This document shows, one piece after another, positions 3,208-52,465 of a stretch of DNA of 64,000 nucleotides. A program made the position numbers and the translations under genes. Location: NCBI GenBank assembly GCA_009786185.1, contig WQTS01000142.1, positions 14,523 to 78,522 on the forward strand, read 5' to 3'. Position 1 is the stretch's first letter. Each line of letters opens with the position of its first letter. The notes beneath the pieces were generated by a model. The model was not told the origin of the DNA. It searched no databases and was given only the letters and a program-made list of their open reading frames with translations. Source of the DNA: Bacteroidota bacterium. GTDB taxonomy: Bacteria > Bacteroidota > Bacteroidia > Bacteroidales > WCHB1-69.

Positions 3208-4316
3208 AAAATGGCAATTTTGAATATTAACGATGCTATACGTAGTAATGACATCGCTGCGGTTGGAAAAAGTACAATTTGTCCCGAAACTTGATTTACA
3301 CTTGTTGCACTCCTTTCATCATTGGCAAATACCACATGTTTTTTCCATGGTTGGTTGTGATATTCTGTCTCGAAATATATTGTTTTCTCAATAATATTAT
3401 GCAGGCGTGTCAAACCGCCATTGTCACCGGTATTCAAATTATTAGGAACGCAAAAACGTCCTATAAAAAGGTCGCCAAAACGATCGTATATTCCGTTGCT
3501 CCCTTTAGTAATACAGGAAAAATAGTAATCCGAAGTCATCTCTGGATTGCTCGAAACACCATGGTCATAAGAGCTTGGCATGCCGGAATTTTCTGTGCCA
3601 ACTTCGCCTATCAATAGTACATACCCAAGCTTGCCATCTAAGGTATTGCGTGCCGTACCCGTTTCGTAAATCGTGCGGATGCAGGTGCGGATGCGTTGCT
3701 CTTTTTTGTAAGTTGTATCAATAGGAATTTTTAATTGGCCTTCATAAAAAAATCCCATACCGTCCGAGATAATGTCTTCCACATTGAGTATCATGATGTC
3801 AAATCCGTTATATTGAGCGCGATGGTTGGCAATGCGTTTCACTTCGTCATGCGGTTGGTTACCGGAAAAAAAGGCATTGGCGCAAATGATTAAATAATCT
3901 GCGGTAATGTTATCAATCTGCTGCGGGTTGTTTATCCGTTTCCATTGTACATTGCCGTCGTTGTTGGTGTGAGCTTCATAAGCCGGAACCGGATACACCG
4001 TATAGTTAGCAAAGGTTTGTTTCCCCGATAGGGTTACGGTATATAGAATTTCGCTACATTCGGGAATGGCGAGCATTTTGGTAACCACCGGAATTTCCGG
4101 ACTGCCAACTTCACCCGTTACTCCACATTCCGGCAACGACAAGCGTTTGTAAACACCTGAAGTTTCGTTTTTAGATTCTACATACATCCCCGACAGGTTT
4201 ACTGTAAACGATACCTGCTGATTGTCTGACCTGTTTACGGAAATTTCCGGAGGCGTACCTTCCGCCCTACTTCCAAAACTTACCCATCCCTGGGCGTTGA
4301 TAGCCATGCTCAACAT
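3204..4316 (-). CDS. Peptidase C25 (gingipain)-like N-terminal propeptide/catalytic-domain fragment
   Basis: The N-terminus (FTVNLSGMYVESKNETSGVYKRLSLPECGVTGEVGSPEIPVVTKMLAIPE) resembles the C25 propeptide. DYLIICANAFF and DLFIGRF resemble the start of the C25 catalytic domain. I could not find the catalytic His/Cys segment. Confidence 0.5.
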   Translation of the reverse strand: MLSMAINAQGWVSFGSRAEGTPPEISVNRSDNQQVSFTVNLSGMYVESKNETSGVYKRLSLPECGVTGEVGSPEIPVVTKMLAIPECSEILYTVTLSGKQTFANYTVYPVPAYEAHTNNDGNVQWKRINNPQQIDNITADYLIICANAFFSGNQPHDEVKRIANHRAQYNGFDIMILNVEDIISDGMGFFYEGQLKIPIDTTYKKEQRIRTCIRTIYETGTARNTLDGKLGYVLLIGEVGTENSGMPSSYDHGVSSNPEMTSDYYFSCITKGSNGIYDRFGDLFIGRFCVPNNLNTGDNGGLTRLHNIIEKTIYFETEYHNQPWKKHVVFANDERSATSVNQVSGQIVLFPTAAMSLLRIASLIFKIAIF

Positions 4317-4379
4317 AAAAAATAATACTGAAATTAGAAAAAATTGTTTAATAACATTTAATTTGGTTAGTAATAAATT

Positions 4380-5270
4380 CTATTGTTTAATAATTTTTTT
4401 TGTTATTACTCCGTTTTCTGTTTGAATTCGCATAAAATAGACGCCTGTTTGCAAGTCTGAAATATCCAATGTGAATTCGTGTGGCACTTGAAACGTGTAG
4501 GACAGTAATTTTTTTCCATAAATTTCATAAATCTCAACATTTTTAATTTTCATTTCTTCATTTTTAATTTTTAATATACCACACGTTGGATTTGGGTAGA
4601 TGAAAATTAAATCGGACATACCAGTCTCATCAATTCCTACTTCTTCAACAATAAAATTGATGCTTACCATTACCGGTTCGCAACCATTTCCAAACACGGC
4701 TTCTACTCCAAATATATATTCGTCCGGTGCAAGGTTTTCAAATACATATTCCGTATTTGCAACAGTTGCTACATCACCCATTCCATTATATACATAATAT
4801 CCGGCAGGGTTTCCTTCGGCTGCTTTCCATTCAAGAAGTACGATGTTGTCTCGTTGCGTGGCAGTTAGATTTGAAACAGCAGGACAAGGGGTAGCACAAG
4901 GAGTGTACACCCCCTTGCAGGCTGATTCTGATACGCAAGTATCATATATCGCCTGAACACAAAAGTAGTTATGCCCAGATTCTGTAACAGTATGGATGTA
5001 AGTGAGTTTTGTTGTGTTTCCTATTAAAATCCCGTTAAAGAATATATAGTAAGAAACGAGAGCATCACCGTCTGTTACAAATGTTCTATTGGGATCTTCC
5101 CATGTTAAATGTACAACACATGTTTCAGAAGCATTGTGAACTTGCAAGGTTTTGACAGGATTGCAAGGTTCAATTTCACCAATTATCATGTAGCGTGGTA
5201 CAAATTCTGATTGTGCCATAGTGATGTGGCAAATCAGTGTTATCATTGCTAATGTCAATGTTTTTTTCAT
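4380..5270 (-). CDS. Secreted T9SS cargo protein (signal peptide, Fn3/Ig-like repeats, T9SS C-terminal sorting domain)
   Basis: N-terminal signal MKKTLTLAMITLICHITMAQ. C-terminus IYPNPTCGILKIKN...LDISDLQTGVYFMRIQTENGVITKKIIKQ. Confidence 0.8.
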   Translation of the reverse strand: MKKTLTLAMITLICHITMAQSEFVPRYMIIGEIEPCNPVKTLQVHNASETCVVHLTWEDPNRTFVTDGDALVSYYIFFNGILIGNTTKLTYIHTVTESGHNYFCVQAIYDTCVSESACKGVYTPCATPCPAVSNLTATQRDNIVLLEWKAAEGNPAGYYVYNGMGDVATVANTEYVFENLAPDEYIFGVEAVFGNGCEPVMVSINFIVEEVGIDETGMSDLIFIYPNPTCGILKIKNEEMKIKNVEIYEIYGKKLLSYTFQVPHEFTLDISDLQTGVYFMRIQTENGVITKKIIKQ

Positions 5271-5285
5271 AGTTTTTCATGTTTT

Positions 5286-5375
5286 TTATTGTTTTACTAC
5301 TTTTTTTATTATTATTCCTTTTTCTGTCATTATCCTAATAAAATAAATTCCTGCGGAAAAATTTGATACATCCAA
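5286..5375 (-). pseudogene. Orphan remnant of a T9SS C-terminal sorting domain (last 29 codons only)
   Basis: My reverse translation gives LDVSNFSAGIYFIRIMTEKGIIIKKVVKQ*. It parallels the end of the neighbouring gene (LDISDLQTGVYFMRIQTENGVITKKIIKQ*) and is preceded by an in-frame stop at 5376-5378. Confidence 0.55.
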
Positions 5376-41641: not shown

Positions 41642-42298
41642 CTATGACTCTTGTCTAATTACACCCAAAACAATAGCTATAGCATATATTTTACTTTTAT
41701 GCAATGGGAAAGGATCATATTTTGGATTATCAGAAACAATAGTTAAAGTATCTTCTGTTTCGCCCTTTTTTATTCGCTTAACCAATGCGCCCTGTTCGGT
41801 ATCCAATACATATACTTTATTCCACTGGAAAAATGTATCCAATGGCAGTTTTTTACACGCAACAATATCACCTGAATTATACTTGGGGTACATAGAAGAT
41901 CCTTTGACGGATATTAGAAATTCGGCTTCTTTAAACACTGGAATAACAAAACGCTCACATTCATGTTCTAAAACTTGTGCACCCCCAGTTCCATAGCCTG
42001 CCATTGCGCTAATGGGAATTAGCGGAATTCCGTCATTTCCATTGGTAGGTACCATATTTTTTGCGGTAATATCATTCCGCAGCATATTGCCGGTACCAGT
42101 AAGTAACCAATCGGATGAAATTTCTCCAAAAACAGATAAAATTTCAGCTATTTGAGTGCCTCCAAATTCGCTTTCTAACGACTTTCCTTTTATATTTGCA
42201 TAAGAAATTCCTGTTTTTTCACAAAACAACTGCTTTGTAATTCCCAAATATTCAATATATTGTAATATTCTCTCTTTGATGGGTGAAATTTTATTCAT
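41642..42298 (-). CDS. Phage repressor (XRE-type HTH plus S24 LexA-like peptidase domain)
   Basis: N-terminal HTH (ILQYIEYLGITKQLFCEKTGISYANI). C-terminus VKGSSMYP...GDIV...VKRI provides the Ser/Lys dyad. Confidence 0.8.
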   Translation of the reverse strand: MNKISPIKERILQYIEYLGITKQLFCEKTGISYANIKGKSLESEFGGTQIAEILSVFGEISSDWLLTGTGNMLRNDITAKNMVPTNGNDGIPLIPISAMAGYGTGGAQVLEHECERFVIPVFKEAEFLISVKGSSMYPKYNSGDIVACKKLPLDTFFQWNKVYVLDTEQGALVKRIKKGETEDTLTIVSDNPKYDPFPLHKSKIYAIAIVLGVIRQES

Positions 42299-42973: not shown

Positions 42974-45040
42974 ATGGTACTGTTCAACTATAACGGAAAT
43001 TTGGCTTTAGAGAGTAGGTGGCTATGGGATAATGGTGTTATTAGCAGGAATAATTACGATATTCGTGTTAATAGAAAGTCTATCACCGTTCTACAACGTT
43101 CCGCTCCCGGCTGTCCCGCCATTATTAGTTACGAATCTCTGCCATATAATATAAAGGATAAAATTAGCACAAAGTTGCAAGAGCTGGGCGAGTTATCGGC
43201 TATTGGTACCAATGCGAATGTACCCATTGAAAAGCAACCCCAACCTTGTTTCTTTGAAAGGTATATAAAACCGGATCCTGCCGCGTTGGAATTTTACGCA
43301 AAATATCCACCGGAAAAAGCGTTGGAATATCACACCAATGCAATTATACTTAACGCATTTCGCGACTTGCTGAGTGAGCGCACGAGTGTTCGCGCTGCAA
43401 AAGGCTCAAGAAGCGTTAAAAGAAGCGGTGTGTTTGCTTCCGTTTTGGGCGATCTTAAATTATTGGACAGAAAAAAGTATCCACACACGCTACCCCTTAG
43501 TGATCGGAACCTAAGGCCCAAGTATCAGGAATATATAAAGGATGGCTACAAATCATTAATACACAAGAATACGGATAATAACTATGCCCGAATAGTAACG
43601 GCTGACATTGAACGGATTTTAATGAGTTTAGCCGTTGCAAGCAATAATCCTTATGCGGAATGGGTTCATGGGCAATATTGCCAATTCTTGTCCGGCGAAA
43701 TTGATGTTGTGGATGTAAAGACAGGCGTACTGTTTAACAGGGAGGAGTTTTGCAATGATAAGGGTGAACCCAGCTACATTAGCGAATCTACCGTATGGAA
43801 TTATCTGAACAATCCCGCGAACAAAGCTGTTATTGATAGTATTAGATTGGGGTACCATCAGTTTGGAGCCTTGGCGCGCCCACACTATCACAGAGAAAAC
43901 GCCCGGTACAGTTTGAGTAAGGTTAGCCTTGATGACAGGGATTTGCCGCGCAAAATGCACGATGGCAACCGCGTAAAAGCATACTATGCCTATGATGTAC
44001 ACAGTGGTGTTCTTATTGGCGCCTGCTATTCAAGAAAAAAAGATACAGATTTGTTTGTAGGCTGTTTGCGCAATATGTTCCGCAATCTTGATGAAATGAA
44101 TTTAGGGCTTCCGCTTGAAATGGAAGTAGAAAACCACCTTGTACGCCAGTTTGAAGATGACTTGCTCAAAGCCGGCAACTTGTTCCCCTTCGTTCGTTGG
44201 TGTGCACCTACCAACTCGCAGGAAAAGCACGCAGAGCAATTTAACAGGCAAAAGAAATACGGATACGAAAAACGCTATCAGGATGGAATAGGCCGCTTTT
44301 ATGCCAAACTTGACGTTAACAGAACCAATGGCGAGCGGGTTTATAACGAAGTAACCGATCGCTACGAAATTAAAACAAAAACATACAGCTACGAGCAGTT
44401 AGTTGCCGACGATCTACTTACGGTAAAAGAATATAACGAGGGTTTGCACCGCGACCAAAAGAAGTATCCGGGCAAAAGCCGCATGCAGGTATTTCTTGAA
44501 AACCTTAACAAAAGTTTGGTGCCAATAAATCGTCCGTTACTACTGCGTTATATCGGGAATTGCACTACCACAAGCGTACAGCGCAACCAATATGTACAGG
44601 TTCAATATGCAGATTACCAATTATCATCACCGGAAGTATTACGCAGGCTAAAACCCGGTAATTATAACGTAAATGCGTACTGGTTATCTAACGCCAAAGG
44701 TGCAATCAGTGAGGTTTATCTCTACCAGGGTGATGAATTTTTATGCAAAGCAGATCAGATAGAAAAGTTTACCACTGCAAAAGCTGAATGGCAGGATGCC
44801 GACAGTACAGCAATGTCGGGCCAGGCACAATATATTACATCATTTGACAAAACAGTAAAGAACGGCAGAGAATCGCTCGCCAAGACGCGAATTTTGCCCA
44901 AAACAAACTACGAAGAAATCATACCGGTAATAGAAGAAGTGGGACCGGTAGCCGAATCTCATTTTGCTTTTGATTTGGACAGGTTAATGGATAAATACCA
45001 AAGTGAAGACTACAAAGAGAGGTGCATTGAAGCAGTTTAA
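42974..45040 (+). CDS. Mu-like DDE transposase (rve/RNase H-fold core)
   Basis: 688 aa. The candidate acidic triad regions are SLDDRDL, AYDVHSG and EMEVENH. It sits directly upstream of a MuB-like ATPase. Family assignment is from context and architecture. Confidence 0.7.
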   Translation: MVLFNYNGNLALESRWLWDNGVISRNNYDIRVNRKSITVLQRSAPGCPAIISYESLPYNIKDKISTKLQELGELSAIGTNANVPIEKQPQPCFFERYIKPDPAALEFYAKYPPEKALEYHTNAIILNAFRDLLSERTSVRAAKGSRSVKRSGVFASVLGDLKLLDRKKYPHTLPLSDRNLRPKYQEYIKDGYKSLIHKNTDNNYARIVTADIERILMSLAVASNNPYAEWVHGQYCQFLSGEIDVVDVKTGVLFNREEFCNDKGEPSYISESTVWNYLNNPANKAVIDSIRLGYHQFGALARPHYHRENARYSLSKVSLDDRDLPRKMHDGNRVKAYYAYDVHSGVLIGACYSRKKDTDLFVGCLRNMFRNLDEMNLGLPLEMEVENHLVRQFEDDLLKAGNLFPFVRWCAPTNSQEKHAEQFNRQKKYGYEKRYQDGIGRFYAKLDVNRTNGERVYNEVTDRYEIKTKTYSYEQLVADDLLTVKEYNEGLHRDQKKYPGKSRMQVFLENLNKSLVPINRPLLLRYIGNCTTTSVQRNQYVQVQYADYQLSSPEVLRRLKPGNYNVNAYWLSNAKGAISEVYLYQGDEFLCKADQIEKFTTAKAEWQDADSTAMSGQAQYITSFDKTVKNGRESLAKTRILPKTNYEEIIPVIEEVGPVAESHFAFDLDRLMDKYQSEDYKERCIEAV

Positions 45041-45073: not shown

Positions 45074-45955
45074 ATGAATTTAAACAAGAACTTAAAAGAA
45101 AAAATTGTAGCGGCGATGATAGAGCGCCGCAGAAACTTTGAAGGCAGTGATGCTAAATTTGCAACTACGTTAGGCATTAGTTCCTCACAGTACAGCCGTA
45201 TTACTAATGGCGAACTGGATAGGGTGATAAGTGATCCCAACTGGATAAGCATTGCCCGGAAACTGGATGTAACGCTTAATAATCTCCCGGAGTGGAAAAC
45301 TGCACGGACACCGGTATATGAATTTGTAACCGGTCAATTGGCTTTTTGCCAAGAAAACGCCGCGAGCCGTATGCTGTGCGATGTAGCGGATATTGGCAAA
45401 ACCTATACTGCAAAGTGCTATGTGAAAGCAAATAAAAACGCTGTTTATATAGACTGCAGCCAGGTAAAGAGCAAACAGAAATTGATTAGAAATATTGCGA
45501 AAGAGTTTGGGGTTGGACATACCGGAACGTATGCCGATGTGTATGCGGATTTGGTGTTTTATCTGCGTTCACTGCCCCAGCCTCTCGTAATACTTGACGA
45601 AGCGGGCGATCTTGACTATGCTGCTTTTTTGGAGCTAAAGGCATTATGGAACGCAACGGAGCGCTGCTGCGGTTGGTACATGATGGGCGCCGATGGATTG
45701 AGAGAAAAGATACGCCGCAGCATAGAGTTTAAAAAAGTAGGTTACGCTGAGTTATTTAGCCGCTATGGCAGCCGTTACCAAAAAGCAAGCCCGGACAGCG
45801 AGCGTGATATGCAGGATTTTAAAACAGTGCACGCTGCCCTGATTATCAAAGCCAATGTTGGGAATGAAGTGGATATACAGAGTTTGATTGCTCGATCTGA
45901 TTTTTCACTACGTAGAATTTACGATGAAGTAAACAAAATAAGCGCAAAGGCATGA
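45074..45955 (+). CDS. MuB-like transposition ATPase (N-terminal HTH plus AAA domain)
   Basis: HTH (FATTLGISSSQYSRITNG), Walker A-like DVADIGKTYTA, and Walker B LVILDEAGD. Confidence 0.7.
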   Translation: MNLNKNLKEKIVAAMIERRRNFEGSDAKFATTLGISSSQYSRITNGELDRVISDPNWISIARKLDVTLNNLPEWKTARTPVYEFVTGQLAFCQENAASRMLCDVADIGKTYTAKCYVKANKNAVYIDCSQVKSKQKLIRNIAKEFGVGHTGTYADVYADLVFYLRSLPQPLVILDEAGDLDYAAFLELKALWNATERCCGWYMMGADGLREKIRRSIEFKKVGYAELFSRYGSRYQKASPDSERDMQDFKTVHAALIIKANVGNEVDIQSLIARSDFSLRRIYDEVNKISAKA

Positions 45956-47525: not shown

Positions 47526-48017
47526 ATGAACCTAACCCCTAATCCCCTTACCACCCAACAAAATCGCTATATATATTGGCTCTTTGGTCAATTAGGCGTA
47601 AAGGATAAAAATGCCATTACCGAAATAGTGCGCGATTTTACCAACAAAAGAACCGGCAATACGGGTGAATTGCAGTTTATGGAGGCGCAACGTTTAATAA
47701 AATACCTTAACGGCATAAGAATAAACAAAAAATTTACAAAATCGGAATTGACAGACAAGTGGGGAAGCGATGCCGAGCGTGCGCAACTTGACAAAAAGCG
47801 TAAAGGGCTACTAAAGGCAATATTCCGTTGGTTTGAGTTGCAGGGCAAGGTTGTCGATATGGATTACGTAAAGGGCGTTGCTTGCAGGGCTGCCGGCGTG
47901 CGCAATTTTAACGAAATAAGTACGGAAGCACTCACGCGATTGTATGCTGAATTTTGCCGCAAGCAGCAAGCTATTGAAGCTATGCAAGCGGATAACTTTG
48001 AAGTATGTTTAAATTAA
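47526..48017 (+). CDS. GemA/gp16-like (DUF1018-like) phage regulatory protein
   Basis: QQNRYIYWLFGQLGV...TGNTGELQFMEAQRLIKYL resembles the DUF1018 pattern. The position matches Mu gemA. Confidence 0.45.
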   Translation: MNLTPNPLTTQQNRYIYWLFGQLGVKDKNAITEIVRDFTNKRTGNTGELQFMEAQRLIKYLNGIRINKKFTKSELTDKWGSDAERAQLDKKRKGLLKAIFRWFELQGKVVDMDYVKGVACRAAGVRNFNEISTEALTRLYAEFCRKQQAIEAMQADNFEVCLN

Positions 48018-48208
48018 TCTTAAGAGCCATGGAAAAGAAATACACCCGATATTACCTTCACCGGAAAGCCAAAAAAGAAGGCTTTAAAGTTGACGCACGC
48101 AAAAGGATTGTTTTCTGCCAATTATATGATGTTGTCAGTGATGCTGCCAATTTCTATCTGAAAAAATTAGTTGAAAAATACAGATACACCATACAATTAG
48201 AATTTTAA
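48005..48208 (+). CDS. Hypothetical small basic phage protein
   Basis: 67-aa ORF in the operon context only. Confidence 0.3.
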   Translation: MFKLILRAMEKKYTRYYLHRKAKKEGFKVDARKRIVFCQLYDVVSDAANFYLKKLVEKYRYTIQLEF

Positions 48209-48219
48209 ACCGAAACATT

Positions 48220-48429
48220 ATGACATTAGTAGATTATTATCCAAATAGAAGCCGCCTTGATTTCATCGCGTCCGATGGAATGCCTGGCGGTGGTATTAAC
48301 GGAAATCTCGCCCACCTTAAAGCGGCGGAACTTCTAATATCAGGCAATGCCATTGTGCGCTATTGCCTTGACAGTAAAATGAACAATCACAAGATTGACA
48401 AAACTCGTAAAAACAAAGTTAAACCCTAA
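48220..48429 (+). CDS. Hypothetical small phage protein
   Basis: 69-aa ORF in the operon context only. Confidence 0.3.
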   Translation: MTLVDYYPNRSRLDFIASDGMPGGGINGNLAHLKAAELLISGNAIVRYCLDSKMNNHKIDKTRKNKVKP

Positions 48430-48442
48430 AAAGATTAAAGCT

Positions 48443-48955
48443 ATGGCAAAAAGAGAAAAAAAGGTGGTTCACACCGGTGTAACCACAGAGCAAATGGAAA
48501 CAGCATTTGCAGACTACGCACGTTGCGATGCGCGTACTCAAAAAATCAATGCCCAAATGGACATTGAAATAATTAAAATTCGTGAAAAGTACGCCAACGA
48601 ATTAGGCGATTTGGCAGAAGCAAAACAAAAGGCTTTCGACATTCTACAGGTATACGCGACTGAAAATAAGGCGGAACTTTTTACCAAGAAAAAGAGTTTG
48701 GAAACTACGCACGGTGTGTTGGGCTTTAGAACCGGCACGCCAAAACTGAAAACACGAAAGGGTTTCACGTGGGCAGCAGTTACGGAACTATTGAAAGAGT
48801 TTTTACCCGATTATGTGCGCATTACAGAGGAGCCGGCAAAAGATATGCTGCTTTCAGATCGCGATTTGCCCGAAACAAAAGAGCTCTTCCCAAAAGTAGG
48901 AGTTTTCGTGGATCAGGATGAATCATTTTTTGTTGAACCGAAAAAAGAAGAGTAA
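48443..48955 (+). CDS. gam: Mu Gam-like host-nuclease inhibitor
   Basis: The coiled N-terminal region (FADYARCDARTQKINAQMDIEIIKIREKYANELGDL..) and the size fit the Gam family. The track ORF starts at 48395, but the ATG at 48443 (MAKREKK) avoids overlap. Confidence 0.65.
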   Translation: MAKREKKVVHTGVTTEQMETAFADYARCDARTQKINAQMDIEIIKIREKYANELGDLAEAKQKAFDILQVYATENKAELFTKKKSLETTHGVLGFRTGTPKLKTRKGFTWAAVTELLKEFLPDYVRITEEPAKDMLLSDRDLPETKELFPKVGVFVDQDESFFVEPKKEE

Positions 48956-48958
48956 AAT

Positions 48959-49429
48959 ATGAAAACATTACAAATTACCGAACAAACAGCGCGGAAACTA
49001 TACACTATAGCTTCTGCTGAATTTAAAGCAGTTCTTGAGGATACTTTTGGGAAAGATTTCTTCTCAATGAGTATAATGGATAGAATTAGATCCGTTGAGG
49101 ATGCGTGTGCAGAACTTGGTCAAAAGCCCGTTAATGAACCCTTGCTTAGGGATTCAGGTTTTACTGAAGATGAAATTATTTACAGAAAGCTAAAGATCGT
49201 TACCAAAGCCTTAAACGAGAATTGGGAGGCTGACTATGAGGATCCTAACCAAAAGAAGTGGTTCCCTTGGTTTAGCGTGTCTTCGGGCGCTTTCGTTTTC
49301 GGCGATGCGAATTACGCCTACTCGTATGCGAATGCGGGCGGCGCTTCTCGCCTTTGCTTTAAATCTGAGGAGTTGGCAGAATATGCCGGCAAGCAATTTA
49401 TAGAATTGTACAAAAAATTTATTCTTTAA
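48959..49429 (+). CDS. DGR target protein 1 (contains VR1)
   Basis: 156 aa with no signal peptide. Its C-terminal third carries the variable repeat: WFPWFSVSSGAFVFGDANYAYSYANAGGASRLCF. Confidence 0.85.
   Translation: MKTLQITEQTARKLYTIASAEFKAVLEDTFGKDFFSMSIMDRIRSVEDACAELGQKPVNEPLLRDSGFTEDEIIYRKLKIVTKALNENWEADYEDPNQKKWFPWFSVSSGAFVFGDANYAYSYANAGGASRLCFKSEELAEYAGKQFIELYKKFIL
49274..49352 (+). repeat. DGR variable repeat VR1
   Basis: 79 nt, identical to TR 49858-49936 at all 60 non-A positions. It has 10 differences, all at TR adenines. Confidence 0.9.
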
Positions 49430-49464
49430 TATTAACCGCCTTTTAGGCATAAAATCAATTTTTT

Positions 49465-49833
49465 ATGACAAACATTATTGAAAAAGTAAAAACATTTGAA
49501 GATGCGCAAGCATTGACCGGCAGGCCCAATGTTCCTGAATTTTTAGAACTTCCTGAAGATTTAAGAGAGTATTTTAAAGCTCATTACAAAATGGCAGTGA
49601 TTGCCGAAGCTTTAAACGAAGGCCGTAAATTGGATTGGGAAGATCCTAACCAAAAAAAGTGGTTCCCATGGTTTCGCGTGTCTTCGGGCGCTTTCGTTTT
49701 CGACGATACGAATTACTACTACTCGAGTGCGGATGCGGGCGACGCTTCTCGCCTTTGCTTTTCGTCAAGCGAGCTGGCAAGATATGCCGGGGAGCAATTC
49801 ATTGAAATTTGGGAAATAATAATTAAAAAGTAA
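49465..49833 (+). CDS. DGR target protein 2 (paralog of target 1; contains VR2)
   Basis: 122 aa; WFPWFRVSSGAFVFDDTNYYYSSADAGDASRLCF. It shares a conserved frame with target 1 (ALNE, W..DYEDPNQKKW, ELA.YAG.QFIE). Confidence 0.85.
   Translation: MTNIIEKVKTFEDAQALTGRPNVPEFLELPEDLREYFKAHYKMAVIAEALNEGRKLDWEDPNQKKWFPWFRVSSGAFVFDDTNYYYSSADAGDASRLCFSSSELARYAGEQFIEIWEIIIKK
49675..49753 (+). repeat. DGR variable repeat VR2
   Basis: 79 nt, identical to TR at all 60 non-A positions. It has 8 differences, all at TR adenines. Confidence 0.9.
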
Positions 49834-49857
49834 AAGTAAAAGGCTGTTTGGCTTTGA

Positions 49858-49936
49858 AGCGTGTCTTCGGGCGCTTTCGTTTTCAACGATACGAATTACA
49901 ACTACTCGAATGCGAATGCAGGCAACGCTTCTCACC
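49858..49936 (+). repeat. DGR template repeat (TR), non-coding
   Basis: This intergenic copy lies 108 nt upstream of the RT start. It has 19 adenines, mostly in AAC/AAT codons when read in the target frame. The homology ends at a G/T mismatch at 49937. Confidence 0.9.
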
Positions 49937-50044
49937 GATGCTAAAAATACAAAACAAAGCCAAAAGCCGTGCCACTTGGCAAAAAATAACAAACTCAAAA
50001 GGTGCTGGTAGGGAAACCGAAGGCTCCAATTAGATAAGCAAAGT

Positions 50045-51022
50045 ATGAAAAGGATAAACAACATTTATGACAAAGTATGCGAAATGGATAATCTGTATTT
50101 AGCATATCAAAAAGCGCGTAAAGGCAAAACCAATACTTATGGTGTCCGGCTCTTTGAGCGTGATTTGAATAATAATATGACGCAAATACATTCGGAATTG
50201 ATTTCAGGGCAATACAAAACATCTGAGTACAGCGTGTTCATGATACATGACCCAAAAGAGCGTGTTGTTTACCGCCTTCCCTTCCGGGACAGGATCGTTC
50301 ACCATGCTATTATGAATATTATTGAAGATACGTGGATAAAAATATTTATCTCAAACACATACTCATGTATAAAAGGTCGTGGCATACATGGTGCTTTAAA
50401 GCACTTGAAACGCGATTTAAAAAATGTTTCAACAACTAAATATTGTTTAAAGTTTGATATTAGAAAGTTTTATCCAAGCGTAAATCACGACATATTAAAA
50501 ACCATTATCAGGAAAAAGATAAAAGACGTAAAACTTTTATCGCTTCTTGATGAAATTATTGATTCCGCTCCGGGAGTTCCGATCGGCAATTATCTTTCAC
50601 AGTTTTTTGCTAATTTGTACCTGTCTTATTTTGACCATTGGCTAAAAGAAGAAAAGCGCGTGAAATATTACTATCGCTATGCGGATGATATTGTGATATT
50701 AGGGCACGATAAAGCCTATTTGCACGGGCTTCTTGTAGAAATCAATCATTACCTTGTAAACAACTTAAATCTATATATAAAGGATAACTACCAGGTATTT
50801 CCGGTAGAAGCTCGCGGCATTGATTTTGTGGGCTATGTATTTTATCATTCTCATATTCTAATGAGAAAAACAATTAAAAAGAATTTATGTAGAAAAGCAG
50901 CTGCTCTTAACAAAAAACGTATTCCCATGGATGAATATAAACATCGAATAGCACCACACCTCGGATGGGCTACACATTGCAATTCAAAACATCTTTTAAA
51001 AACCATTATACCACATGAATAA
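50045..51022 (+). CDS. DGR-type reverse transcriptase
   Basis: RT motifs include PIGNYLSQFFANLYL (the I/LGxxxSQ signature of DGR RTs) and YRYADDIVILG (YxDD). 325 aa with no maturase or endonuclease domains. Confidence 0.9.
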   Translation: MKRINNIYDKVCEMDNLYLAYQKARKGKTNTYGVRLFERDLNNNMTQIHSELISGQYKTSEYSVFMIHDPKERVVYRLPFRDRIVHHAIMNIIEDTWIKIFISNTYSCIKGRGIHGALKHLKRDLKNVSTTKYCLKFDIRKFYPSVNHDILKTIIRKKIKDVKLLSLLDEIIDSAPGVPIGNYLSQFFANLYLSYFDHWLKEEKRVKYYYRYADDIVILGHDKAYLHGLLVEINHYLVNNLNLYIKDNYQVFPVEARGIDFVGYVFYHSHILMRKTIKKNLCRKAAALNKKRIPMDEYKHRIAPHLGWATHCNSKHLLKTIIPHE

Positions 51023-51329
51023 ATTCTCTGATCTTGGCATTGAAATTGAAGAAAAAAACATTTACAACGTTACGCAGATAACTGTTGAAGATGTTTTGAA
51101 TTGTGAAATAAGAGTTATTGATTTTCAAGCAAACGTAAAAACGAGGCACGGAGACGGTAGATGTGTATTATTAATTGAATCTGATGGAGTTAAAAAGAAG
51201 TTTTTTACCAATGCAAGCCAATTAAAAGAGGTTTTGGATAAAATACCTAAAGAGAAGTTCCCATTCTCAACAACAATAAAGCAACAACGTTTCGGTAATG
51301 GAAACGGTAAAACATATTATTTCACTTAA
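51015..51329 (+). CDS. Hypothetical protein overlapping the RT stop (candidate DGR accessory)
   Basis: 104 aa with an 8-nt overlap with the RT gene. It looks beta-rich, unlike the helical and basic Avd. Confidence 0.5.
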   Translation: MNKFSDLGIEIEEKNIYNVTQITVEDVLNCEIRVIDFQANVKTRHGDGRCVLLIESDGVKKKFFTNASQLKEVLDKIPKEKFPFSTTIKQQRFGNGNGKTYYFT

Positions 51330-51347
51330 AACGAAATTATTTTAACA

Positions 51348-52172
51348 ATGGAAAATAAACGCATCATTCGTGTGTTTCCTCGAAAAACAAAAGCAACTCC
51401 TGACGATGAGAACGTAAGGATTAATTGCAAACCTGTGATGTTTGATAGAGCTGATGAAGTACATATATCTGTTACATTCACATGGGATTTAAAGCGCGCC
51501 GAATATTTGTATAATCAATGGCGATGGGCAGGATTTAACACAAAGATAGGCGGTGTTGCATTTGGACAACCAAGCGGAGAGTTTGTGCCTGGATTGTATC
51601 TAAAAAAAGGATATGTGATTACTTCGCGCGGCTGCCCGAATAAATGTTGGTTCTGTAATGTTCATAAAGTACAAGGCGATTTAATAGAATTGCCGATTGT
51701 TGAAGGCTATATTATTCAGGATGACAACTTACTTGCATGTTCTGAACATCATATAAACGCCGTTTTTGAAATGCTCAAGAGACAAAAAGAGCGACCGGTT
51801 TTTGCAGGTGGCTTGGAAGCAAAACTGTTAACGCAAGAAATGGCCTTTCGGTTGAAAGAACTTAATCCAGCTTCACTGTTTTTTGCCTATGACACAAAGG
51901 ACGATTACGAGCCGCTTATACAAGCAGGAAAATATCTAACAGAAGCAGGATTTAAAAAGAATGATATTGTGAGATGTTACGTATTAATCGGCTATCAAGG
52001 CGATACTTTTGAAAAAGCTGAAAAGCGTTTGCGTGAAGCGTGGGCTGCAGGCTTTTTTCCTTTTGCAATGCTTTATAGAGATGAAAAGGGTTGTATGGAA
52101 AAAGAATGGAGGCAATTTCAGAGACTTTATGCAAATTCATATATTACAGGCTCAATTTTACGAAAAAAATAA
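51348..52172 (+). CDS. Radical SAM-like protein (phage-encoded)
   Basis: SRGCPNKCWFCNV is a CxxxCxxC cluster motif, followed by an alpha/beta-like region. No closer assignment is possible by eye. Confidence 0.55.
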   Translation: MENKRIIRVFPRKTKATPDDENVRINCKPVMFDRADEVHISVTFTWDLKRAEYLYNQWRWAGFNTKIGGVAFGQPSGEFVPGLYLKKGYVITSRGCPNKCWFCNVHKVQGDLIELPIVEGYIIQDDNLLACSEHHINAVFEMLKRQKERPVFAGGLEAKLLTQEMAFRLKELNPASLFFAYDTKDDYEPLIQAGKYLTEAGFKKNDIVRCYVLIGYQGDTFEKAEKRLREAWAAGFFPFAMLYRDEKGCMEKEWRQFQRLYANSYITGSILRKK

Positions 52173-52180
52173 AACAAACA

Positions 52181-52465
52181 ATGAAAGTCTATATTGCCGG
52201 TAAAGTAACAGGATTAAACCTTGCGGACGCTTTTGTGAAGTTCGGTACAGCGGAATTTCAACTGAAGCAAGCCGGGTATGATGTTGTTAACCCGATGCGG
52301 ATCTGCTCTCAAAGTTGGAGTTGGGAAAAGTGTATGAAGGCATGTATAATGGGGCTGGTGCAATGCGATGCCATTTACCTGCTTCCGGATTGGAAAGAAA
52401 GTGAGGGAGCGAGATTAGAATATTACATTGCGAAAAAACTTAAACTAAAAATAATAACATTATGA
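52181..52465 (+). CDS. DUF4406 (nucleoside 2-deoxyribosyltransferase-like) protein
   Basis: MKVYIAGKVTG...VVNP...CDAIYLLPDWKESEGARLEYYIAKKL. The track ORF starts at 52091, but the ATG at 52181 fits the family N-terminus. Confidence 0.6.
   Translation: MKVYIAGKVTGLNLADAFVKFGTAEFQLKQAGYDVVNPMRICSQSWSWEKCMKACIMGLVQCDAIYLLPDWKESEGARLEYYIAKKLKLKIITL

Follow-up and report, generated by a model that had tools for sequence, protein, structure and literature searches.

Adenine-restricted variation in paired genes points to a diversity-generating retroelement within a Mu-like Bacteroidota prophage

A cassette of about 2.4 kb was analyzed in a 64,000-nucleotide stretch (hereafter, the window) of contig WQTS01000142.1 of a Bacteroidota bacterium (assembly GCA_009786185.1). 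It very probably constitutes a diversity-generating retroelement (DGR) carried within the early operon of a transposable, Mu-like prophage. The cassette comprises two paralogous target genes, T1 (48959..49429, + strand) and T2 (49465..49833, + strand), each containing a variable repeat (VR); a noncoding template repeat (TR; 49858..49936, + strand); a reverse transcriptase (RT) gene (50045..51022, + strand); and an overlapping 104-aa open reading frame (ORF), termed ACC. All differences between the VRs and the TR fall on TR adenines, the RT groups with DGR RTs, and the same arrangement recurs in related loci. On this evidence, the DGR has almost certainly acted on both VRs.

Adenine-only differences between the template and variable repeats

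Scripted realignment recovered, at identical positions, the three copies of a 79-nt segment described in the initial annotation: VR1 (49274..49352, + strand) in T1, VR2 (49675..49753, + strand) in T2, and the TR. The TR (A19 C22 G17 T21) differs from VR1 at 10 positions and from VR2 at 8. Each of these 18 differences (A>G, A>C, or A>T) lies at one of its 19 adenines, and all 60 non-A positions are the same in the three copies, so the pattern first reported survived realignment. The chance of 18 of 18 differences falling on adenine is (19/79)^18 = 7e-12, and the hypergeometric probability of A-only differences was 6e-8 for VR1 and 3e-6 for VR2. Furthermore, T1 and T2 share a 186-nt paralogous block in which 25 of the 107 positions outside the VR (23%) differ, with all base types affected, whereas none of the 60 non-A positions inside the repeat does (P ~1e-7 versus the flanks). 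Such non-A identity amid diverged flanks indicates that the repeat was homogenized against the intergenic copy and is not merely young, in agreement with the earlier argument that recent duplication does not suffice to explain it.

VR1 occupies codons 106-132 of the 156 codons of T1, and VR2 occupies codons 71-97 of the 122 codons of T2, both in frame 0. Read in the target frame, the TR includes the codons AAC (three), AAT (three), TAC (two), GAT, ACG, GCA, AGC, and CAC, and no A>N substitution in its 26 codons yields a stop, which is the AAY codon design. The stop-avoiding design proposed earlier therefore stands, but the codon list given with it needs correction: AAT is present three times in the TR and mutated at two of these sites, and the first-codon change in VR2 (AGC>CGC) had been omitted. 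The repertoire of the TR amounts to ~4.7e10 peptides, or 2.7e11 DNA sequences. Even when three mismatches were tolerated, its 26-nt A-free core was found at no more than three sites in the window (0 expected), so there is no remote target within the window. As described initially, 108 nt separate the end of the TR from the RT ATG, and a 61-aa ORF (49848..50033) spans the TR.

The RT belongs with DGR RTs

The RT is a 325-aa protein (pI 9.6) that matches Pfam RVT_1 (E 2e-17) and phrog_1423 (E 1e-122). Both motifs named in the initial annotation are present in its ORF, namely PIGNYLSQFFANLY (with PIGNYLSQ, of the IGxxxSQ type) and YRYADDIV, which contains YADD. Its best match among PDB sequences was by far 8ub7_A (E 2e-51, residues 2-301), a chain that is 100% identical to brt of Bordetella phage BPP-1 (tblastn), and group II and "retron-type" RTs in the PDB sequences scored ~1e-15. 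The scores against the NCBIfam models for group II, Drt3a, retron St85, and Drt2 RTs were all far under the cut-offs, with 108.8 bits against a cut-off of 300 for the group II intron model TIGR04416 and 52 bits against 235 for retron_St85_RT; an Rfam scan found no intron RNA and no retron RNA family. By sequence, the RT belongs with DGR RTs and is closest to Brt, as had been supposed, and the search scores separate it from retron and group II RTs. Because the RT models cover nearly the whole protein, there is no room for additional domains. The nearest RTs in the phage collection were those of crAss-like Suoliviridae, with 55-59% identity.

The pattern recurs in related loci

We retrieved 160 related loci and analyzed them by script; 116 of them carry an RT downstream. 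At least one TR/VR pair of at least 50 nt with mismatches only at TR adenines was found in 109 of the 116 RT-bearing loci, with exactly two A-only VRs in 87 loci and three in nine. The search returned 214 A-only TR/VR pairs, compared with 0, 11, and 1 when it was repeated for C, G, and T only. Across 157 unique TR/VR pairs, 68% of the TR adenines were substituted, by G (53%), T (34%), or C (13%). More than 100 related loci have a cassette of the same make-up, with T1, T2, TR, RT, and a 104-aa ORF. At L011 (VRs at 5319, 5750, and 6170) and at eight other loci, one TR serves three T-family paralogues, each of which has an A-only VR.

Comparison of nearly identical loci provided a view of recent change. 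Loci L019 and L020 differ at 6 positions in 2178 nt, and all 6 lie in VR2 at TR-adenine positions. Of the 21 differences between L013 and L015, 10 fall on TR-adenine positions of a VR. The L019/L020 pair, a sister element, thus shows recent VR-only change. The pattern that the initial annotation asked for, polymorphism confined to TR-adenine positions, was seen in this pair; in the window element, no such polymorphism was seen across four assemblies.

The 3' boundary of the repeats

The 3' ends of the repeats show an asymmetry of the type formed by the initiation of mutagenic homology (IMH) sequence of a VR and its TR counterpart, IMH*. At this end, both VRs read GCTTCTCGCCTTTGCTTT, located at 49343..49360 (+ strand) in VR1, where it encodes R-L-C-F, and at 49744-49761 (+ strand) in VR2. 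The TR instead has GCTTCTCACCGATGCTAA (49927..49944, + strand), which departs from both VRs at A49934, G49937, A49938, and A49943-4. Past 49936, the TR continues as GATGCTAAAAAT, VR1 as TTTGCTTTAAAT, and VR2 as TTTGCTTTTCGT; apart from a G/T mismatch at 49937, the sole non-A one, the differences are fixed A>T changes, and an in-frame TAA stands in the TR where both VRs have TTT. The initial annotation had placed the end of homology at this G/T mismatch. The mismatch is present, but the end is not sharp, as weak TR/VR similarity runs to ~49948. The initial suggestion of an IMH/IMH*-type boundary agrees with the shared VR end, the non-A mismatch, and the TAA.

Given the TR stop codon and the fixed differences, this part of the 3' end cannot pass from the TR to the targets. 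Residues R131, L132, C133, and F134 are nearly invariant across the target family, and the VR-side sequence CGCCTTTGCTT was found again in loci L006 and L007. Judged from these alignments, the VR end behaves toward the TR end like IMH toward IMH*. The A>G difference at CAC/CGC, common to both VRs, is probably part of this fixed asymmetry rather than a product of mutagenesis.

A conserved RNA structure around and downstream of the TR

In the RNA, the TR is bracketed by helix P0, whose 5' arm (49842..49856, + strand) pairs with its 3' arm (49955..49968, + strand). P0 has 14 bp and one bulged G (duplex ΔG -20.9 kcal/mol, z -4.1) and closes the TR into a loop. The spacer between the TR and RT matches the RT-17 RNA (Rfam RF03020; 49965..50045, + strand) at 45.8 bits, above the gathering score of 40.4, and the match spans model positions 1-95 of 95. 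It contains hairpin P1 (49970-49981), an A-rich stretch, an inner hairpin, and stem P2 (50001-50005/50023-50027), which encloses GGUA...GAA. RT-17 was the only Rfam family in the window, and no tRNA genes were found there.

A P0-like duplex at z below -2 was present in 45 of 63 loci. In the alignment of these 63 sequences, compensatory changes were found in 11 of the 14 P0 pairs and in all 4 P1 pairs, P1 being 99% paired. For P0 by itself, pairing was possible in 88% of cells, a figure that dropped to ~41-53% with a slid partner. P0, P1, and P2 taken together were 88% paired, compared with 40-53% when the 3' partner was slid, and showed compensatory changes in 19 of 23 pairs; none of 500 shuffles reached any observed measure. 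The structure was partly derived from the window sequence and is favored in the slid control for that reason, whereas the compensatory counts are independent of it. The RT ATG lies 93-115 nt after the TR end in nearly all of 64 non-redundant loci. RT-17 was detected in 7 of the 10 related cassettes examined but not in either of two crAss-like DGR loci. At L007 (10998-11074) and L173 (4951-5034), the called RT gene (355 aa) begins inside or upstream of the RT-17 match, and its annotated start is therefore probably too far upstream.

RT-1 to RT-19 were described as motifs near RT genes, with no role assigned to RT-17; RT-10 was recognized as the TR-RT spacer of BPP-1, and it was speculated that others belong to DGRs (Weinberg 2017, PMC5737381). 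In every case that we examined, RT-17 sits between a TR and a DGR RT, and the TR-bracketing helix lies outside the Rfam model. These results suggest that RT-17 and P0 are likely to form a functional DGR RNA scaffold. Neither had been noticed when the element was called complete.

The accessory gene ACC

The element had been taken to end at 51022, the end of the RT gene, but the cassette runs on into ACC (51015..51329, + strand), a 104-aa ORF of pI 8.6 assigned to phrog_19665 that overlaps the RT stop by 8 nt. The initial description of a complete DGR is accordingly right for the RT, TR, and VRs, but it overlooked this ORF and the absence of Avd. ACC homologues occurred in 105 of the 116 loci with an RT, compared with 1 of 48 without. 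In three loci picked via ACC itself, the T1-T2-RT-ACC block was intact with overlapping ORFs, and its surroundings varied among a RecT/SSB module, an integrase-type phage, and a Mu-like phage.

Searches of ACC against Pfam, NCBIfam, PADLOC, and PDB sequences gave no relatives of known function, and an assignment to Cas2 was rejected because the sole match (E 0.009) was judged to be noise. The AlphaFold2 (AF2) model of ACC (pLDDT 84) predicts a barrel-like domain that is rich in beta structure, has a single helix, and is no four-helix bundle. Foldseek returned only weak, non-significant matches to this model, mostly OB folds, which we treat as a hint and not a finding. We consider it somewhat probable that ACC is a DGR accessory factor, and it is a candidate lineage-specific, nucleic acid-binding partner of the RT.

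A perfect 16-nt inverted repeat, CAATTCAAAACATCTT/AAGATGTTTTGAATTG, was observed at 50980-50995 and 51088-51103, 92 nt apart. It straddles the RT stop codon and the ACC start and could affect ACC translation. It is peculiar to this element: as a family feature it was rejected, being absent from 71 other non-identical RT-ACC junctions.

The target proteins T1 and T2

T1 is a protein of 156 aa (pI 5.0) that matches phrog_11581 (E 1e-31), a family annotated as of unknown function. T2 (122 aa, pI 4.8; phrog_11581, E 1.6e-19) is a T1 paralogue that lacks the first ~35 residues and is 52% identical to T1. By inspection, neither protein has a signal peptide or a membrane segment, and searches of Pfam, NCBIfam, PADLOC, and PDB sequences gave no usable match for either, nor did a T1 profile search against PDB sequences find anything. 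T1 has at least 496 close homologues, and a T1 profile search of 1.8 billion representatives returned 4335 clusters, none of which is named or carries a Pfam domain. Across 120 homologues, the scaffold was strongly conserved, and columns 115, 116, 118, 120, 123, 125, and 128 were hypervariable. These columns, with a residue spectrum of D/Y/G/N/S/R/C/A, match the AAC, AAT, and GAT codons of the TR exactly.

The AF2 model of T1 (pLDDT 88.9, pTM 0.82) predicts helices at residues 8-85, a beta hairpin at 100-120, and two C-terminal helices, with a low-confidence loop at 123-130; the variable codons map to the second hairpin strand and this loop. In a Foldseek search against the PDB, the best match had E 0.38, and there was no C-type lectin or Ig fold among 45 hits. 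Against BFVD, only uncharacterized phage proteins were returned, some of them from crAss-like phages. Structures fold downstream of the VRs in both genes, but no hairpin/cruciform of the BPP-1 kind common to VR1 and VR2 was found among them.

Single-chain fusions of two T-family domains (275-305 aa) occur naturally (P0241, P0242, P0246, P0248, and others), and T1 and T2 therefore probably act as a pair. In ten T-family proteins with extra N- or C-terminal sequence, Pfam revealed no informative fused domain. T-family genes also occur without a nearby RT, as at L004 (10001-10474, Barnesiella propionica), L170 (5001-5585, Bacteroides phage BI-TP1), and L171 (5001-5447, Dulem virus 41), and such genes are always found among early or DNA-metabolism genes. 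The protein thus has a role independent of diversification. T1 and T2 probably bind a variable ligand.

Prophage context and the site of target action

The Mu-like prophage was recognized across window positions 41642-64000, and its right end lies beyond the window; window positions 1-41157 resemble host chromosome. Mu-like hallmarks found there were a transposase (42974..45040, + strand; phrog_310), a MuB transposition protein (45074..45955, + strand; phrog_296), Gam (48395..48955, + strand; Phage_Mu_Gam, E 6e-36), a portal protein, a MuF-like protein, and the large terminase subunit (TerL). A CI-like repressor gene lies on the - strand (41642..42298), and ATPase and HNH genes are also on the + strand. 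The packaging/head block, which encodes a small terminase/DNA-binding protein, TerL, the portal, the MuF-like protein, and a neck protein, runs on the - strand from 60267 down to 54154 and converges on the + strand genes.

On the + strand, the order is Gam, DGR, a radical-SAM gene, and a DUF4406 gene. The radical-SAM gene (encoding 274 aa; phrog_9298) directly follows the DGR and is overlapped by the DUF4406 gene, whose product is nucleoside-deoxyribosyltransferase-like; together (51348-52465), they may constitute a DNA-modification module. The Barnesiella prophage L004 has a similar radical-SAM gene, also encoding 274 aa (4011-4835). The placement of the cassette after Gam and on the opposite strand from the head block assigns the targets to the early, accessory portion of the phage genome. 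T-family genes of other phages likewise lie among recombination, methylase, HNH, and DUF551 genes, whether or not a DGR is present.

The early-gene neighborhood and the lack of export signals make an intracellular role somewhat likelier than a virion role. Whether the targets are early-expressed, non-structural intracellular binders is nevertheless our weakest inference, held tentatively and just short of an even judgment. The alternative places T1 and T2 in the virion, as small Mtd-like tail tips for receptor binding or adhesion, with the DGR serving host-range switching as in BPP-1. Such a role is the commonest among phage DGR targets (Roux 2021, PMC8144416), the closest RTs, those of crAss-like phages, diversify Mtd-similar tail proteins, and a virion protein needs no signal peptide. 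However, the target genes lie in an early operon between Gam and DNA-metabolism genes, their homologues in six other phage contexts sit among recombination, methylase, and HNH genes and never in structural modules, and no similarity to any tail or C-type lectin structure was found. We regard a virion role as rather unlikely.

Activity of the element and strength of the interpretation

Several observations weigh against reading this cassette as a functional DGR that works on a new kind of target with ACC in place of Avd. The target fold comes from one AF2 model in which the variable loop is of low confidence, and T1 and T2 could possibly be a very divergent C-type lectin variant. In a large survey, annotated VR regions were systematically C-type lectin, and uncharacterized ones were presumed to be new lectin variants (Roux 2021, PMC8144416). 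The role of ACC is argued from a single line of evidence, gene linkage. No Avd-type Pfam match was found in the ten ORFs scanned from 47526 to 52465, which comprise the cassette and its neighbors. Brt needs Avd, and the biochemical analogy with BPP-1 is therefore incomplete. Furthermore, the window element is 100% identical over 2.5 kb in three other assemblies, with no VR variation seen. All four cassette proteins are singleton clusters at 90%, with no near-variants among 15 billion proteins. No further copies were found either in an exact-pattern scan of viral_contigs with the A-free TR core or in scans of metagenome_contigs with the TR core and the VR1 flank.

These observations bear on the possibility that the DGR worked formerly and is now silent or non-functional here, as a fossil or under tight repression, with VR1 and VR2 as effectively fixed alleles. 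In lysogeny, the operon would also be expected to be shut off by the CI-like repressor. However, the four assemblies with this element are probably re-assemblies of one or two samples and not independent, and the absence of VR variation among them says little. The RT ORF is full length with YADD, ACC is intact, the TR retains 19 adenines and its complete flanking RNA structure, and both VRs are in frame with intact IMH-like ends; in addition, the sister element has changed recently in its VR only. A silent element is thus quite unlikely in our estimation. The remaining alternative, that gene conversion or recent duplication made the repeats alike, with a chance or compositional A pattern and an unrelated retron, group II, or defense RT, draws on the bare presence of repeats beside an RT and on weak sub-threshold group II, Drt3a, and retron model matches, and is so improbable as to be negligible, being refuted by the probability of ~7e-12 with change always from A in the noncoding copy, by 109 independent loci that repeat the pattern while the C, G, and T controls stay near zero, and by an RT far closer to Brt than to other classes, with no intron or retron RNA in the Rfam scan.

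Discussion

The sequence features of the cassette are those described above, and the biochemical steps in the following scheme are modeled on the Bordetella phage BPP-1 paradigm. A TR-containing RNA would be made in which helix P0 loops out the TR and the structured RT-17 spacer follows. The RT would recognize this RNA, probably together with the translationally coupled, basic 104-aa ACC in place of Avd. Priming in or near the spacer, it would copy the TR into cDNA, faithfully at C, G, and U and with random bases opposite A. The cDNA would then replace VR1 or VR2, guided by the invariant, GC-rich IMH-like end GCTTCTCGCCTTTGCTTT, and the 3' difference of the TR, including its stop codon, would make the transfer one-way. 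In each of T1 and T2, about seven codons (AAC, AAT, and a few single-A codons) would be randomized, giving ~5e10 stop-free peptide variants per target at positions predicted to lie on a beta-hairpin strand and the following loop.

DGRs are, to our knowledge, the only natural targeted protein hypermutation system known in prokaryotes. Tens of thousands of examples have been catalogued and their mechanism is well known, so the bare finding of another is unsurprising, and large catalogues may already contain this lineage without describing it. Knowledge of DGRs comes almost entirely from C-type lectin receptor-binding proteins and the Brt-Avd pair. The present cassette, which recurs in well over 100 Bacteroidota phage loci of the collections searched, offers a compact (122-156 aa) and apparently different variable scaffold as a conserved pair. 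It also offers a system that does without Avd, for which a candidate substitute protein and a covarying RNA scaffold are defined, and it gives the orphan family RT-17 a role. Moreover, it hints that phages diversify non-structural early proteins too. If the targets are ordinary, divergent, lectin-like tail tips, it is simply one more phage DGR. In the most far-reaching reading, which we think unlikely as a whole, T1 and T2 would be a third DGR display scaffold, neither C-type lectin nor Ig, employed by many Bacteroidota phages and acting as an early intracellular heterodimeric binder, for example of variable host defense or host factors, with the OB-like ACC and RT-17/P0 replacing Avd.

Comparison with known DGRs

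The cassette resembles the BPP-1 DGR (mtd-avd-TR-brt) in several respects. Its RT is a full-length Brt homologue with the same IGxxxSQ and YxDD motifs, and its TR lies just upstream of the RT, separated from it by a structured spacer of ~100-140 nt, which in BPP-1 is RT-10 (Weinberg 2017, PMC5737381). Adenine-only VR/TR differences, AAY codons, the IMH/IMH* asymmetry, and a temperate phage carrier are also shared. Unlike in BPP-1, no Avd was found, and the RT gene is coupled at its 3' end to an ORF for a predicted beta-rich protein of 104 aa; RT-17 takes the place of RT-10 as the spacer; and there are two targets instead of one. These targets are acidic proteins of 122-156 aa encoded among early genes and have no detectable C-type lectin fold, whereas the BPP-1 target belongs to the tail module.

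The DGRs of crAss-like Suoliviridae (cr53_1, cr52_1, and cr115_1) share the target-TR-RT order on one strand, the lack of an annotated Avd, Bacteroidota hosts, and A-only TR/VR pairs, which we confirmed there. In contrast to the window element, their sole target is a large tail protein, "similar to sulfatase / major tropism determinant," whose VR is of the classical C-type lectin type; a holin gene follows the RT, there is no ACC homologue, and no RT-17 RNA was found. Hankyphage is likewise a Mu-like temperate Bacteroidales phage with a DGR (Benler 2018, PMC6199706), but its target is a C-type lectin protein of 2225 residues with a single C-terminal VR of 117 bp, it carries a small Avd-like ORF, and it has no DNA similarity to the window element. 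When the cassette was compared by megablast with 50,697 phage records, just a 68-nt RT fragment matched; the element is neither Hankyphage nor any deposited phage.

In an earlier classification, 26% of DGRs lacked avd, and the avd-less lineage 3/3a was confined to Bacteroides and relatives; this lineage, with architectures A and E, carries a "CH1" accessory protein of 160-169 aa (pI 4.7) that has no motifs (Wu 2018, PMC5758913). The window element shares with it the lack of avd, the TR-RT core, and Bacteroidales hosts, and, compared by description, it probably belongs to lineage 3/3a. The description of CH1 resembles T1 (156 aa, pI 5.0), and CH1 may be a T-family protein; if so, it is a target paralogue and not an accessory gene. 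That study describes no 104-aa ORF downstream of the RT, no RT-17, and no tandem paired targets. Compared with the textbook cassette, the window element departs in four respects: it lacks Avd, a conserved ORF is coupled to its RT, RT-17 is combined with a TR-bracketing helix, and its targets are paired, small, acidic early-gene products with no detectable likeness to lectins.

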